Below, in pieces: positions 12,594 through 33,421 of a stretch of DNA of 64,000 nt. Position numbers and translations under genes: made by a program. The DNA is from Parachlamydiales bacterium (GTDB lineage Bacteria > Chlamydiota > Chlamydiia > Chlamydiales > SM23-39), in NCBI GenBank assembly GCA_015661075.1, contig JACVQJ010000011.1, forward strand, positions 2,257 to 66,256. The letters run 5' to 3'. Numbering within the stretch: the stretch's first letter is position 1; each line of letters opens with the position of its first letter. Below the pieces are notes generated by a model. It did not search any database. It had not been told where the DNA came from and saw nothing but the letters and a program-made list of their open reading frames with translations.

Positions 12594-13756
12594 CTGTGCT
12601 GGACAAAAAATAAATTGATGAAGAGAACTCGCTGAAGAGCGATCATATCTCGTTGATTTTCAAACATCGAGGTATAATGAAGCACGTCAGCGAGCTGCAA
12701 AAAATTTTATCGCATTTCTTTGATTGGAACAAGGCCCGTTTAGATTGCCTAGGGCAAATCATTCAGGCTTTGTTCGTAGTCAGAACTATAAACCTGACCC
12801 AAGTTGCTTCAGCCTTCAAGTCGGAGGTCAAGGAGGAGTCGTCATACCGAAGAGTCTGTCGATTCTTCACTGGTTTCACCTTCGACATGAGTACAATCGT
12901 CCCTCTGGTTTTCCGCCTGTTTCCTTTCGGCGATAAATGCACTCTAATCCTGGATCGCACGAACTGGAAGTGGGGAAAAATTCCCATCAATATCTTGATG
13001 CTCTCGATTGCCTACAAAGGTATCGGCATTCCACTATTCTGGGTTGTTGTGCTGAATCTTGAAGGCAACTCGTGCGCGGGGGACATGATCGATCTGCTAA
13101 AACAAGTTGTGAAACCGCCTTGGGATCAATAGATTCGAGGCACTTCTCGCGGATCGCGAATTCATAGAAACGCAGTGGTTTCGCTTTCTGATCGAACAGA
13201 AAATTCCATTCGTTATCAGGATTAAACAGAATTCCATGGTGGAAATCGGAGAGAATGACAAACTTCCAATAGGACGCCTACGGAAACGGCTCTCAAAGAA
13301 AAAAGTTGTGGTCTTTCCCTCTACGTTTCGATCGAAAAGAGAAAAGGCGCCAAGGAACAAATGATCGTGGTCTCCAACTTCAAATTCGATGATCCTCTGG
13401 GGATGTATAGGAGGTGCTGGGAAATCGAAACTATGTTTGGTTGTTTGAAGACCTGTGGGTTCCGAATGGAGGACACTCACATCACCGATCCAGACAAAAT
13501 TGAGAAGATAATGTTCGTTCTGGCGATCGCTTTCTGCTGGGCATACCGAATGGGGGTATCCAGGATCAGATACGGGCGATAGAGGTCAAAACTCATGGGA
13601 GAAGAGCTAGGAGCCTCTTTAGGGAGGGGCTAAATCTGATTCGCCGAGCAATTTTTGGGAGATGGGCTCTAAGAAAATTCAGGCGACTGTGTCCGTGTTT
13701 TACGTGTTTAGAACCAACTGGTTGTGCGCTATGAATTTATTTTTTGTCCAGTACAG
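12594..13756 (+). mobile_element. decayed IS4-family insertion sequence (about 1.16 kb) with intact terminal inverted repeats
   Basis: 23-bp terminal inverted repeats with one mismatch: CTGTGCTGGACAAAAAATAAATT at 12594-12616 against the reverse complement of 13734-13756. They enclose transposase fragments. Confidence 0.75.
12653..13734 (+). pseudogene. IS4-family DDE transposase, broken by at least three frameshifts
   Basis: The fragments carry LILDRTNWKWG (D), LLADREF (D, second frame) and YRRCWEIETMFGCLKTCGF (the YxxRxxxE..K signature). The C-terminus KTHGRRARSLFREGLNLI is in yet another frame. Confidence 0.75.
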
Positions 13757-28427: not shown

Positions 28428-29552
28428 TCAGGCGGTTTCGATCACACGGATGCCGAGCGCTTCACCGAGATAGACGAGTTCCCCGCGGCCGATTTTTTGA
28501 CCGTTCACAGTTAATGAGACTTCCTGATCGGGATGGATCGGCAGTTCTAAAAAATTGCCTGGGGACAGTTTCATCAATTGATCCACGGACATGCGCAATC
28601 GCGCCAGTTCGACAGTCACGAGCAGAGGAAGTTCCTTGACGGCCATCGCGCGCCCTTCTTCTGCAGATGCAGTTTCTTCGGTATTTTTTTGCGGCGCAGC
28701 GTCGCGCTTTTCCATAGTTTCCTCATAGAATAAGGCATAATCGAGCAACTTGATCTTGTTTTCTTTCACGCTGATGTGAAACAGCGGCGTTGATCCCAGC
28801 GATAGAGTCGCAGCCCCAACGCGAAGGCGAGGATCGTAGCCGCCCCTTTCGAGCAGGATGAAGTCGCCCTTTTCCAGCTTGTTCCACTCTTTGGTCGTTA
28901 ATCGGCAATTCCCGGTACAGATGCTGAGGGGCACTTCGATGCTCGGGGCGAGCGGCGACAAAGAAAACAGCTCCCGCATCGATGAAAAGTGGCGCTGCCA
29001 GGAGGTCAGCAAGTGGGCAGGCAAAACGAGGCGGCCCCAGCAAGAGCCATGTTCAAAGGACAGTTTAATATCGATGCAATAGGCATTCTCGATGCTCTCT
29101 TCGCTCTCTTCGTTGATTTTCAATGAAAAAGTAGTGATTGGCTCGATGGTTTGCAGGGCAGCTAAGGCCTCAAGAGCCAAAAAGCGGTAAAATCCCTCTT
29201 GCAGGATTTCCGAGTTGATGGTGCGGGTGCGGCTTTTGCCGTTCATCAGCCAGGAGGTCATGCGGGCGACATCTTCGCGCCCCATCATCCAGATGGCATT
29301 ACCGGATAGCGGGGAGATGGAGACGCTCAGACTCATGACATCCGAACCCAGACTCTCTTTAATTTTTTTCTCTTCGCGCCAGGTTCCTTCCCCCGTTTCA
29401 ATCGATAACGGTGCGCCGAATTGCGCTTTGATCGCGGAAGAGATGCGGCTGATATCCAATCTTGGTGCATTTCCATAGAGAGGAATTTTATCGAGCCGCC
29501 GCAAAGCGTCGTCGACTTTGCGCGCCCAAGCCAATGGAAGCCCATTCGTCAT
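28428..29552 (-). CDS. sctQ: T3SS cytoplasmic-ring / sorting platform protein SctQ (CdsQ)
   Basis: C-terminal SpoA/FliN-type domain LPLLVTVELARLRMSVDQLMKLSPGNFLELPIHPDQEVSLTVNGQKIGRGELVYLGEALGIRVIE. There is a 4-nt overlap with the upstream sctP-like gene. Confidence 0.85.
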   Translation of the reverse strand: MTNGLPLAWARKVDDALRRLDKIPLYGNAPRLDISRISSAIKAQFGAPLSIETGEGTWREEKKIKESLGSDVMSLSVSISPLSGNAIWMMGREDVARMTSWLMNGKSRTRTINSEILQEGFYRFLALEALAALQTIEPITTFSLKINEESEESIENAYCIDIKLSFEHGSCWGRLVLPAHLLTSWQRHFSSMRELFSLSPLAPSIEVPLSICTGNCRLTTKEWNKLEKGDFILLERGGYDPRLRVGAATLSLGSTPLFHISVKENKIKLLDYALFYEETMEKRDAAPQKNTEETASAEEGRAMAVKELPLLVTVELARLRMSVDQLMKLSPGNFLELPIHPDQEVSLTVNGQKIGRGELVYLGEALGIRVIETA

Positions 29553-30793
29553 TTTTCCCTCTCATTCATATCTTCTTTGCCGCCGCCCTCTTTTTTTCGC
29601 CGGATCAACGGACGTCCAGGCGATAGCTCTGTTTCAAGCCGGCCGATGCGAAATTTGATGCGATGATCTTCATAAGCAGCCGTAAAGGCCGACGTCAAAC
29701 TACTGATATTTTGATTGAATGCCTTTACTGCTTCCGGCGTTCCTGTGAGGCGGATGTTAAAAGAATCGGGAGCGCTGGAATATTTTGCAATGGTAATTGT
29801 TGTGTTGTAGAAGACGGAATTTTGAAACTTTGGGGAATTCAGCACTACTTCTGTTAAGGAAACGCCCGTTTTGGGCATCGACATGAAAACGACCGTACCT
29901 ACCATTTGATAAAATAGCGCGGCTGTTTGGGGGGTCAGGAACGGGGATGCCGATGTCTGGGCGATCTGCGCGACCTGTTGCGCCGCGGGCGGCAGCGGAT
30001 CCGGCGGACTGACGGGTGTTTGAGATTCAAAAGAAGCTTGTTTCTTGTGGCTATCTTTTTCATCCCCTTTATCTTTATGAGCTTCAGTAAAACCGCGCGA
30101 TGGGGCTGCTATTTTTTCCTTTTCTTGCCAGGCCGTTTTTTCTTTTTGGCTGATATTCGGCGCCGGGCGCTCTTCTTTTTTCACAGGAACGGTCGGCGTT
30201 TCTCTTTCTACCCAAAAGGCCTTTATCGGTTTTTCCCCTTTCATTAAGGGCGGAGGCGCGATGGGTAAGGAGGGCTGCGGGAGACCTTTTTTCTCCGCTG
30301 TTTTTTTTCCAGAAGATTCTTTTGACTGGATCGGCGACGCCCATGGGGTTCGGGGTTTTTCCTGACCAAAATTCTCGTGCGGCGAAGGGGCTTTGATCTC
30401 AACTTTTGGTTTCTTAAGGGTGGATGGACCGAAGATGCCCCCAAATTCTTTAGCTGTTTTTTTTTCAGGGACAGCTGATTGCTGCTTTGCCTGTTGATGG
30501 GTCAATGGCTGCGGCTGTTCGTTGAATTGAGTCGGGGGGATGGGCTGGTCAGGTAGATCGTTATTTTCCCAGAACTCTTCTGACTCGGGAAGGTTTTCGT
30601 CAATCTCGCCCTCTTCTTCCGGGGGGGTGGCGTATGGGCGTTTTTGCTGTTGGTCGAGTTCTACCTCGCTCACCTTTTCCACTTCCTCGACCGGGCGCAT
30701 GGCTTTTTGAAATTTCCCCGCATCAGCGCCTTGTGTTCCGCGCGCTCCACGCACAGGTTCGGGGGAAGTAGGACCGCCAACAGGGTTGGTCAT
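29549..30793 (-). CDS. sctP: proline-rich T3SS protein in the CdsP/SctP (needle-length regulator) position
   Basis: Its position directly upstream of sctQ matches chlamydial CT671. The N-terminal two thirds are low-complexity P/E/K-rich. The C-terminal globular part (VSLTEVVLNSPKF...FNIRLTGTPEAVKAF) is reminiscent of a T3S4/FliK-like domain. Confidence 0.55.
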   Translation of the reverse strand: MTNPVGGPTSPEPVRGARGTQGADAGKFQKAMRPVEEVEKVSEVELDQQQKRPYATPPEEEGEIDENLPESEEFWENNDLPDQPIPPTQFNEQPQPLTHQQAKQQSAVPEKKTAKEFGGIFGPSTLKKPKVEIKAPSPHENFGQEKPRTPWASPIQSKESSGKKTAEKKGLPQPSLPIAPPPLMKGEKPIKAFWVERETPTVPVKKEERPAPNISQKEKTAWQEKEKIAAPSRGFTEAHKDKGDEKDSHKKQASFESQTPVSPPDPLPPAAQQVAQIAQTSASPFLTPQTAALFYQMVGTVVFMSMPKTGVSLTEVVLNSPKFQNSVFYNTTITIAKYSSAPDSFNIRLTGTPEAVKAFNQNISSLTSAFTAAYEDHRIKFRIGRLETELSPGRPLIRRKKEGGGKEDMNEREK

Positions 30794-30902
30794 ATGTTGT
30801 CTCCGTAGATCAGGCTTATTTTGACTTTAGGGCGAATTCATAAACTTATCAAGAGGGCAGATGTGGATTTTATTCTTGGGCGCGAGAAAACCCAATCCTT
30901 TA

Positions 30903-31053
30903 GGGCTGATCGTTACCCACAAGTTCCGTTTCCAGAGGGAGGCGAGGCAAAGCCAGATGGAAGCGTAAGCGGTCCGAATGGTGAAGCCCATAGCTGAAAG
31001 CAGCAAAGCCGCAGCCCCCTATGGAAACGGAACTTGTGGGTAACGATCAGCCT
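30903..31053. repeat. MITE-like nested palindrome, copy B (151 bp), flanked by TTA
   Basis: 31-bp perfect inverted repeat GGCTGATCGTTACCCACAAGTTCCGTTTCCA at 30904-30934 against 31022-31052. TTA at 30900-30902 and 31054-31056; the wider direct repeat is CCTTTAGGG. Confidence 0.65.
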
Positions 31054-31094
31054 TTAGGGGCGGCGGGCGGCTCTAAAAACGTACAAAGTCGAGA

Positions 31095-31409
31095 TTAAGT
31101 GCTTTTTTGAATGAGCTTGGGTCGATAGATTCCCTTGTCGACTATTTCCAGCAGTCGTAGGGCTGCATGACTCGGAACTCGTTCTCCCGATTCCCAGGAT
31201 TGAACGGTTTTAATGCTGACATTCAAAACTTTTGCAAAAACGCCCTGAGAATACGGCCCCTTTTTTCGGATATTTTTAATGTGGTTGGCTGAGTATGAAA
31301 TAGGGGGTTCTGGGATTTCAATAATCTCGGATTGAAGCGTAATCTTACCTTGTTTATGAGCAAGTATTTCTTCGAGGCCTCCTTTTAATTCTTCAAAAAA
31401 TCTGCTCAT
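31095..31409 (-). CDS. XRE-type HTH antitoxin (YiaG/NadS-like)
   Basis: 104 aa. The C-terminal HTH is SQGVFAKVLNVSIKTVQSWESGERVPSHAALRLLEIV. Its ATG overlaps the inferred original toxin stop (ATGA). Confidence 0.75.
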   Translation of the reverse strand: MSRFFEELKGGLEEILAHKQGKITLQSEIIEIPEPPISYSANHIKNIRKKGPYSQGVFAKVLNVSIKTVQSWESGERVPSHAALRLLEIVDKGIYRPKLIQKST

Positions 31410-31864
31410 TTTTTCCCCTTAATTGCATTGGTTATCTTTTTCAAGACAGCTTTTTCTTCCGCGCTTAGGGATCGTTCAAGAATAAAGTTTAGTGTTGTCG
31501 AGGAGAAAAACGGTTTAGATTTTGAGAATTTTTCCGCAGCTGAGAGTCTTGTTTCTCTCTGTTGAACGATCCCTTAAATTTTCTTGTTCGTTTTTTTGAA
31601 AAACCTGAATCAGGTAAATAGTTTGCCTAAATACATAGTAAAAATAACAAACCCGAAAGCCTCCGCTCTTTCCCCTCGATGCAGATTTTAATCTTATTTT
31701 TCTAACGCCGCCAGTTCCTGTCAGGACAGTCCCCTTTTCTGGATTTTCAGCCAGCTCTCTTTTAAGGTCGTTGTAATCGTCCTGCAAAAGACTATGCCGA
31801 TTCAACAAAGCGGCAATTTTTTTGAAAACGCCGTGGTTTCGGTTATTTGAATCTTTGTATTCAT
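31406..31864 (-). pseudogene. RelE/ParE-superfamily toxin, inactivated by a homopolymer frameshift and a MITE insertion
   Basis: MNTKIQITETTAFSKK (frame a) continues as LLQDDYNDLKRELAENPEKGTVLTGTGGVRKIRLKSASRGKSGGFRVCYFYY..VFQKNEQENL (frame b, after the A7 run at 31817-31823). A 106-bp insertion then separates it from SAEEKAVLKKITNAIKGKK*. Confidence 0.65.
31468..31573. repeat. MITE-like element, copy C (106 bp), inserted in the toxin gene and flanked by TTA
   Basis: 12-bp perfect terminal inverted repeat GGGATCGTTCAA (31468-31479) against TTGAACGATCCC (31562-31573). TTA at 31465-31467 and 31574-31576. Removing it restores the toxin reading frame. Confidence 0.7.
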
Positions 31865-31965
31865 TGTACTACAGTGTAGGATATCTTTCTGCTATTTGAA
31901 AAGTAAAATCTCAAGCCTTTGTATATCAGTTGTGTTTGCGCTAACGAGAGCGTGTTTGATCCCTT

Positions 31966-32478
31966 TCATTCTTTATCCCGTTTTTCAGCGTCCCGTTTGC
32001 GGAGTAGATGCGTCGATGAACCTTGTTCGTCGTGCTGTTCCGCTTCCTTTTGCTCAGTCCAGTAGTGAACCTCTTTTTTCCATTCCGCTTTGTGCATTTC
32101 AAGTTTTTCGAGATCTTTTTTGCGCTGAAAGAGATCTTCCGTTGCCTGATCAACGAGTTTTTGGGCCAAATCGACCTTCGCTTTCTGGTCGACGACCTTT
32201 TTTTGCTTTTCCCGCAGCTTTTCATCCACGATCTTTAAATAGATCTTCATCTGCTGAATCTTGTCTGTCGTCGTTCCTTTGTCCAACGCATCGCGCAGCT
32301 GCTGGAGTTTGTCCGTCTTGTGCTGCAGGACGGAGTCGCGCTCCTGGGTCACTTCGTAGAGTTTTTCGTACGCTTTTTCCAAAATCACTTTTTTTTCCTC
32401 GAGCACTTTGACCGCCTGATCGAAGCGGTTTTTCTTGATCTGCATCAATTGCTCGAGCGGATAATTCAGCGGATCCAT
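31966..32478 (-). CDS. sctO: T3SS stalk protein SctO (CdsO, CT670-like coiled coil)
   Basis: 170-aa all-coiled-coil protein. The N-terminus YPLEQLMQIKKNRFDQAVKVLEEKK and the DKGTTTDKIQQMKIYLK segment match my recollection of chlamydial CT670. Its position lies between sctN and sctP. Confidence 0.7.
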   Translation of the reverse strand: MDPLNYPLEQLMQIKKNRFDQAVKVLEEKKVILEKAYEKLYEVTQERDSVLQHKTDKLQQLRDALDKGTTTDKIQQMKIYLKIVDEKLREKQKKVVDQKAKVDLAQKLVDQATEDLFQRKKDLEKLEMHKAEWKKEVHYWTEQKEAEQHDEQGSSTHLLRKRDAEKRDKE

Positions 32479-32598
32479 AGATCTCCAAAAAAATAGACTG
32501 TAGCAAGGTACATGAAAAATGAAAAATTAAAATGAGCTAAATTTATCCCAAACCAACAAAATCAGTGGGGAGACAGTGTATCAGCACCTTAGAAATAG

Positions 32599-32628
32599 TT
32601 GATTGTTAGTCCCAATATTGGGTATAAT
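32599..32628 (+). promoter_or_regulatory. sigma70-like promoter with an overlapping palindromic operator for the plus-strand TA cassette
   Basis: TTGATT (32599-32604), 18 nt, then TATAAT (32623-32628). The palindrome CCCAATATTGGG (32611-32622) abuts the -10 element. The ATG at 32638 is only 10 nt downstream. Confidence 0.4.
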
Positions 32629-32637
32629 TAGAAATGG

Positions 32638-33045
32638 ATGAGCGAACGTATGGAAGCGAAAAAAGAAATTCTCTGGATTGGCTCCTCTAAGCCAGACCTC
32701 CAATCTTTAGTGGGTGAGGCTCAAGATGAGATAGGATATGCCTTATTTCAGGCCCAAATGGGCGGGAAAAGTGAAAAAGCAAAACCGTTTAAAGGATTCG
32801 GTAGCGCAAACGTTTTGGAGATCGTTGTGTTTAGCATAGGTGGAACGTATAGAGGCGTTTACACGGTGCGCTTTAAGGGAGTAATTGCTGTGTTGCACGT
32901 ATTTCATAAAAAATCCACGCATGGAATAAAAACAAGCAAACAAGATATAGAGTTAATTAAAAGTCGATTGAAGCTCTCTGAGGAAGATTACAATGTTTGG
33001 ATGCTAAAAGAGGAAAAGAAAAATGAAAAAGAAAAAAGCCAATAA
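32638..33045 (+). CDS. Gp49/HigB-like (DUF891-type) RelE-superfamily toxin
   Basis: ILWIGSSKPDLQSL...PFKGFGSANVLEIVV...YRGVYTVRFKGVIAVLHVFHKKSTHGIKTSKQDIELIKSRL fits the phage Gp49-like toxin pattern. Confidence 0.75.
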   Translation: MSERMEAKKEILWIGSSKPDLQSLVGEAQDEIGYALFQAQMGGKSEKAKPFKGFGSANVLEIVVFSIGGTYRGVYTVRFKGVIAVLHVFHKKSTHGIKTSKQDIELIKSRLKLSEEDYNVWMLKEEKKNEKEKSQ

Positions 33046-33421
33046 AGAAGGAAGTGCAGAAACTCGCCCAAAAACAGGCGTCAAGAGCGTTTATGAGGAG
33101 CTGGGCAATAAAGATTTTAAAGAAATGGAAACAAAAGCCATTTTGGTAATGGAGTTAAGCAAGACAATCAAGAAACAAAAGCTGACTCAAACCGCTGTCG
33201 CTGAAGTCCTGGGAATTACTCAGCCCAAACTTTCTGCGTTATTAAGAGGTCAATTTAGAGGGTATTCAGTTGAGCGTTTGATTCATTTTCTTGTGGAGCT
33301 AGGCAAAGATGTGGATATTGTTGTGAAAACAAAGCCGCGCAATCGCAAAGGCCGAGTTAGCGTTTATCCTTGTAATGATAAAAGCGAGCCAAATCCACCA
33401 ATGGCCGCTCTGGGCAAATAA
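33023..33421 (+). CDS. XRE-family HTH antitoxin
   Basis: LTQTAVAEVLGITQPKLSALLRGQFRGYSVERLIHFLVELG is the typical partner of Gp49-like toxins. It overlaps the toxin 3' end. The true start may be an internal Met. Confidence 0.75.
   Translation: MKKKKANKEGSAETRPKTGVKSVYEELGNKDFKEMETKAILVMELSKTIKKQKLTQTAVAEVLGITQPKLSALLRGQFRGYSVERLIHFLVELGKDVDIVVKTKPRNRKGRVSVYPCNDKSEPNPPMAALGK

Follow-up and report, generated by a model that had tools for sequence, protein, structure and literature searches.

A predicted HigB2-like toxin pseudogene, interrupted by a hairpin MITE and a frameshift, beside an intact antitoxin in a chlamydial T3SS operon

One class of bacterial MITEs is mobilised by IS5-family or PIF-Harbinger-like transposases, insertion being marked by 3-bp TWA duplications (ISfinder classes). 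Among toxin-antitoxin systems, the closest described relative of the locus reported here is the HigB-2/HigA-2 pair of Vibrio cholerae (PDB 5ja8 and 5jaa), in which the toxin active site consists of R51, R64, Y82 and K84 and the C-terminal helix α3 of the toxin is displaced by the antitoxin, some RelE relatives being without α3 (PMC5416850). In Rickettsia, a different kind of repeat, the Rickettsia palindromic element (RPE), inserts in frame into protein genes (review PMC10969869).

The window analysed here is a stretch of 64,000 nucleotides from a Parachlamydiales bacterium whose 2.01-Mb genome is a 45-contig draft. It carries a toxin-antitoxin cassette between cdsO and cdsP, within a T3SS cluster that runs cdsD ... 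cdsN, cdsO, cdsP, cdsQ, cdsC. We think it probable that a HigB2/HigA2 type II cassette was acquired in the cdsO-cdsP spacer and that its toxin gene is a recent pseudogene with three lesions. The features of the locus, numbered from the first letter of the window, are as follows.

29549-30793, minus strand: gene in the cdsP position, the downstream neighbour, which comes directly after cdsO in relatives.
30905-31051, no strand assigned: MITE-B copy in the spacer before cdsP, belonging to a second palindromic family (~25 loci, 7- to 8-bp flanking direct repeats).
31055-31093, no strand assigned: MITE-C stub of 39 nt, belonging to a third palindromic family (~183 bp, ~52 loci); it starts 2 nt past the antitoxin stop and is interrupted by MITE-B.
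31095-31409, minus strand: HigA2-like antitoxin, intact, 104 aa, its neutralising segment at the N terminus and its HTH at the C terminus.
31406-31464, minus strand: toxin 3' piece, SAEEKAVLKKITNAIKGKK and a stop, corresponding to helix α3; it follows the element and is in the frame of the 5' piece.
31465-31467, no strand assigned: TTA target-site duplication, copy 1.
31468-31573, no strand assigned: internally deleted 106-bp MITE-A copy with 12-bp terminal inverted repeats (GGGATCGTTCAA); one arm lacks 59 nt relative to the 165-bp copy.
31574-31576, no strand assigned: TTA target-site duplication, copy 2.
31575-31820, minus strand: toxin body, HigB-2/RelE family PF06296, in the −1 frame relative to the start.
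31802-31864, minus strand: toxin 5' piece, 16 authentic residues (MNTKIQITETTAFSKK), four out-of-frame codons and a stop, delimited from the ORFs and from alignment to intact homologues.
31817-31823, minus strand: A7 run, where the gene is 1 base short of all homologues and after which the body continues in the −1 frame.
31966-32478, minus strand: cdsO (YscO-like), the upstream neighbour.

The cassette shares with V. cholerae HigB-2/HigA-2 the toxin-first order, a PF06296 toxin of ~110 to 116 aa and a 104-aa antitoxin that begins with a neutralising segment and carries its HTH in the C-terminal part. The toxin body scored 30.3 bits against the Pfam RelE model PF06296 (cutoff, 27; E = 5e-7), and the nearest solved relative of an intact homologue was V. 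cholerae HigB-2 itself (PDB 5ja8; E = 2e-18). The equivalents of R51, R64 and K84 are kept in the window toxin, as in the V. cholerae protein, whereas Y82 is replaced by Phe, a difference found throughout the chlamydial clade, all intact homologues included. The window cassette further differs from that of V. cholerae in that the toxin is frameshifted after codon 16, helix α3 is displaced by a MITE and the whole cassette is lodged inside a T3SS operon.

The antitoxin had been predicted to be intact and to lie inside the T3SS operon, and we found it as an open 104-aa ORF between cdsO and cdsP, with an HTH_3 match (E = 6e-6) and 82% identity to the antitoxin of an intact chlamydial pair (G006, below). 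Its length of ~104 aa, its C-terminal HTH and a start codon overlapping the toxin stop are those of HigA-2-type antitoxins. The overlap takes the ATGA form at 31406-31409 (toxin TGA at 31406-31408, antitoxin ATG at 31407-31409), and a Shine-Dalgarno-like AAGGGG motif stands ahead of the antitoxin at 31415-31420. The antitoxin was 100% identical in two metagenome contigs (L076 and L077). No cassette was found at this T3SS locus in any relative checked, cdsN, cdsO and cdsP being adjacent; in a same-genus genome cdsP begins 144 nt past the end of cdsO, and in G007 the cdsN-cdsO gap is 9 nt. The closest relatives of the toxin sit in other genomic contexts. A separate pair, an intact Gp49/HigB-like toxin with an HTH_37 antitoxin, occupies 32638-33421 on the plus strand, between cdsN and cdsO, and is absent there in relatives.

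Intact relatives show what the undamaged toxin looks like. In G006 (contig DATIHQ010000047), a MAG from the Chlamydiales and from the same family, an unbroken toxin ORF of 116 aa overlaps, at its stop, the ORF of a 104-aa antitoxin. The insertion site is empty there, the two halves of the window locus aligning back to back across the insertion point. At seven further Chlamydiota loci, six toxins of 116 to 117 aa overlap their antitoxins, and the seventh (L046:3004-3570, from a Parachlamydiaceae MAG) is missing its final strand and helix and forms an in-frame fusion of 189 aa with its antitoxin. Intact toxins carrying the 106-bp segment as coding sequence had been named beforehand as evidence against an insertion. 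We found none: the segment was absent from G006 and the seven other Chlamydiota homologues and from all 215 metagenomic relatives recovered at E ≤ 1e-10 when a large protein collection was searched with a read-through toxin query. Among the matches listed in that search, nearly all were 113 to 117 aa and the best was intact and 86% identical; no intact toxin allele of ≥90% identity was found, and this best relative lies in another genomic context. Its toxin is followed by an antitoxin ORF of only 65 aa (the pair at L079:4001-4545); either the assembly is wrong here or a live toxin stands next to a truncated antitoxin.

In the window, no continuous ORF covers the whole toxin fold: the reading frame changes beyond codon 16, and the final 19 codons are displaced by the MITE. 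The minus-strand 5' piece starts at an ATG at 31864 and reads MNTKIQITETTAFSKK followed by LPLC and a stop at 31802, so that the first 16 residues are out of the frame of the body. A 97-aa ORF (31515-31808) contains the body, which was 76% identical to an intact 116-aa homologue in a tblastn search with that relative; the same search placed the last 19 codons at 31409-31465, in a third reading. By its reading frames, the window gene is a predicted pseudogene of the HigB-2/RelE family rather than a working member.

The original prediction, all of whose coordinates proved correct, attributed the frame switch to the A7 run at 31817-31823, and a DNA alignment of the window with three intact homologues bore this out, a single base being absent at TTTT-CAAAAAAATTG. 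Given that homopolymer length is a classic source of error and that FSKKI or FSNKI stands here in close homologues, one might suppose that the A7 is a sequencing or assembly error, that the 5' part is truly continuous and that the MITE lesion alone is real. We hold this to be very improbable. The same A7 was reproduced in an independent k141 MEGAHIT contig of a short-read metagenome (L078; 32 kb, running from cdsN through cdsO into the toxin), and frame switches across the genome were not enriched at homopolymer runs (61 of 4152, versus 282 of 20760 random sites), and these two results together make a sequencing error unlikely.

The toxin had been described as inactivated twice. The two lesions are there, and inactivation by them is plausible. 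All of the active-site equivalents lie upstream of the element, which sits after the last β-strand and replaces helix α3 only. Since the active site precedes the MITE, and α3 is missing from some RelE relatives, the MITE lesion might not by itself be inactivating. With both the N-terminal strand and helix α3 lost, the toxin is probably non-functional. A relative-rate test for relaxed selection was not significant for the toxin (7 unique changes versus 3) and gave 8 versus 6 for the antitoxin.

The element itself was correctly delimited by the original prediction, which gave it 106 bp (31468-31573), perfect 12-bp inverted repeats and TTA on both sides; its arms, GGGATCGTTCAA and TTGAACGATCCC, are 100% complementary over 13 nt with the flanking A/T included. 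That it is or was mobile and duplicates TTA also proved right. A search of the genome for further copies and of homologues for empty sites, which had been proposed as a check, recovered ~18 loci with 95 to 100% identity (the MITE-A family), as well as the empty site in G006. Every one of the nine complete copies is flanked by an identical 3-nt direct repeat, TTA at seven and TAA at two, which are one duplex read from either strand. Full copies are 165 to 169 bp long and form one long hairpin (−51 kcal/mol; z = −13.5), and several copies lack part of one arm, with differing breakpoints. With terminal inverted repeats, a target-site duplication, multiple copies and an empty homologous site, the element has the properties by which MITEs are recognised. 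Among the 103 genomes of the family, 18 contain related copies, 67 to 82% identical to MITE-A, and these genomes belong to 10 of its 53 genera.

Like MITEs of the IS5/PIF-Harbinger type, MITE-A is non-coding, has short terminal inverted repeats and a 3-bp TTA/TAA duplication, and exists as many near-identical copies with empty sites in homologues. Unlike them, it consists almost wholly of one long hairpin, and the draft genome yielded no autonomous element that shares its ends, no pair of MITE-A ends there spanning a transposase. PF13359 had no match in the genome, and the PF01609 transposases bear other ends, as judged from the inverted repeats around each transposase; since the genome is a 45-contig draft, an autonomous partner could be missing from the assembly. 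A promoter and terminator scan found nothing inside the MITE, counts being at the level of shuffled sequences, and an Rfam search over 30600-32700 gave sub-threshold chance matches only. A full-text literature search returned no paper on MITEs in chlamydiae, and the MITE-A family may be undescribed for this group. Elsewhere in the window, DDE_Tnp_1 transposase fragments lie at 13131-13537 as two weak PF01609 matches, with an 18-nt inverted repeat at ~12599 and 13751.

Most copies of MITE-A are intergenic. A 113-bp copy (G000:C17:343-455; L003) splits a YD-repeat (Rhs-like) gene and breaks its frame, and the upstream piece of that gene ends in the target duplication.

Once the element is removed together with one TTA, the toxin ORF and its ATGA coupling to the antitoxin reappear, as predicted. 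The element that inserted appears, however, to have been longer than 106 bp. Using exact look-up of the antitoxin and CdsO, we found metagenome contigs (ENA ERZ27247315 and JGI 3300021064) with 0 mismatches to the window over ~4.1 kb, that is, from the same strain. These contigs have a full 165-bp MITE at the same toxin site, longer by 59 nt in one arm than the copy in the window; the full allele was reconstructed from two contigs of one sample that overlap by 107 nt. Together with its duplication, the 165-bp MITE amounts to 168 bp (56 codons) that can be read in the toxin frame without meeting a stop, and in the full-MITE allele the body is still in frame with the final 19 codons and with the ATGA overlap. 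The 165-bp MITE is open in just one frame per orientation, and ~2.5% of shuffled sequences are open in a given frame. Because the 165-bp copy occupies the same site in other assemblies, the 106-bp copy would represent a later deletion of 59 nt. From the two alleles as assembled, the insertion alone would have left the frame unbroken, and it would be the later internal deletion that broke it. Thus, the original view of the element as an insertion stands, but not that of 106 bp as the inserted unit.

The length of the A7 run and the 106-bp form both rest on assemblies, and the second of these could in principle be an artefact, in which case the real locus would carry the 165-bp MITE, with the 3' end of the toxin in frame and coupled to the antitoxin. 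A full-length arm is present at the site in two other samples, and 26 nt are also missing from the middle of the adjoining MITE-B in the window, relative to two metagenome contigs of the same strain, so that both differences fall in palindromes within otherwise identical sequence. The 106-bp form was seen in the genome of the window only, an exact look-up of the 97-aa body ORF returning no other assembly on record. We nevertheless judge an artefact unlikely, if less so than an error in the A7 run. The junction of TTCAA and CAGAGAG is unique to this locus within the genome, and an assembler would therefore have needed reads containing it; reads thus probably support the 106-bp form. Moreover, the different arm deletions at several other MITE-A loci fit real instability of the hairpin. 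The occurrence of two palindrome deletions with zero point differences over the stretch likewise suggests hairpin instability, which we take to be the probable cause of the deletion in the toxin gene.

The full-length allele also bears on whether the frameshift could be bypassed by ribosomal −1 or transcriptional slippage on A_AAA_AAA, leaving a toxin that is attenuated and not dead. TCA AAA AAA is a perfect X_XXY_YYZ heptamer in the 0 frame, a −1 shift there enters the frame of the body exactly, and in the full-MITE allele the remaining ORF is open to the ATGA overlap. Against this, the downstream fold was no better than that of shuffled sequences (z = −0.84), there is no SD-like stimulator upstream, the homologues all have one continuous ORF without a frameshift here, and the 3' end of the window allele is out of frame regardless. 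We give such a bypass hardly any credence. Programmed −1 frameshifting as such was not supported: the heptamer is present, but the structure downstream of it is at the level of shuffled sequences and the homologues have a single unbroken ORF.

The resemblance of the full copy to a Rickettsia RPE was also considered. Both are palindromic elements of obligate intracellular hosts, ~150 to 165 bp long, and the full MITE-A copy with its duplication, at 168 bp, is stop free in one frame from either end. In contrast to RPEs, MITE-A is mostly intergenic, its other genic copy (that in the YD-repeat gene) breaks the frame and there is no recurrent in-frame use. Recurrent RPE-like use was rejected, the stop-free arrangement occurring only in the full-length allele of this toxin while other copies are intergenic or frame breaking. 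A narrower version would have the 165-bp MITE act as a coding-compatible, RPE-like selfish element that places 56 residues between the last β-strand and helix α3, with some product arising through slippage on A_AAA_AAA and the toxin being tuned down and not dead. We consider this version every bit as improbable as the bypass.

The genome contains a second HigB2-like toxin that is likewise broken. A paralogous antitoxin (G000:C6:288-602; 104 aa) is intact, and the toxin beside it consists of residues 54 to 113 only (G000:C6:1-602). At the end of contig C5 (G000:C5:125-259) are residues 1 to 45 of a HigB2-like toxin, ~8 codons being absent between the pieces, and the ends of C5 and C6 both run into a repeat encoding an HTH start and a TnpB-like protein. 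We infer that C5 and C6 join here, and the arrangement points to a second toxin split by an IS607/IS605-type element. No intact HigB2-like toxin is left in the genome. In the window, the right end of the IS607/TnpB-like repeat occurs from 63491-63588 onward and contains a TnpB-like open frame that is cut off by the end of the contig after at least 422 codons.

Our preferred reading, decay of an acquired cassette, would have proceeded as follows. A toxin-first HigB2/HigA2 cassette would have been acquired in the cdsO-cdsP spacer of the chlamydial T3SS operon. A full 165-bp hairpin MITE would then have inserted at a TTA ahead of helix α3, duplicating the TTA and remaining in frame and stop free, and one base would have been lost in the A-run, shifting the frame after codon 16. 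In the lineage of the window, deletion of 59 nt of one MITE arm would have put the last 19 codons out of frame and ended the coupling between the stop of the toxin and the start of the antitoxin. The latter is intact and has a ribosome-binding site of its own. Direct observation covers the lesions and the target duplication, as well as the empty sites and the intactness of the antitoxin. That the toxin decays while the antitoxin stays may reflect an asymmetry of cost, since loss of the toxin is harmless and loss of the antitoxin with a live toxin is lethal; this account, which we infer, fits three independent instances in the toxin family. Selection may be what preserves the antitoxin, whether for regulation or for defence against toxins that arrive from outside, or the antitoxin may simply be young.

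This is ordinary gene decay, unusually well documented, and it leaves knowledge of toxin-antitoxin systems and MITEs unchanged. It has practical use in the annotation of chlamydial MAGs, for pseudogene calls and repeat masking, and as a strain marker. A hairpin MITE family is now documented across an environmental chlamydial family, and palindromes were changed by internal deletion twice in ~4 kb without point differences between strains. The locus offers a clean, datable case of the death of a chromosomal toxin-antitoxin cassette, toxin first, by way of mobile elements and a homopolymer slip, and the same outcome has been reached three times in one toxin family: in the window, in the second copy in the genome and in the Parachlamydiaceae fusion.
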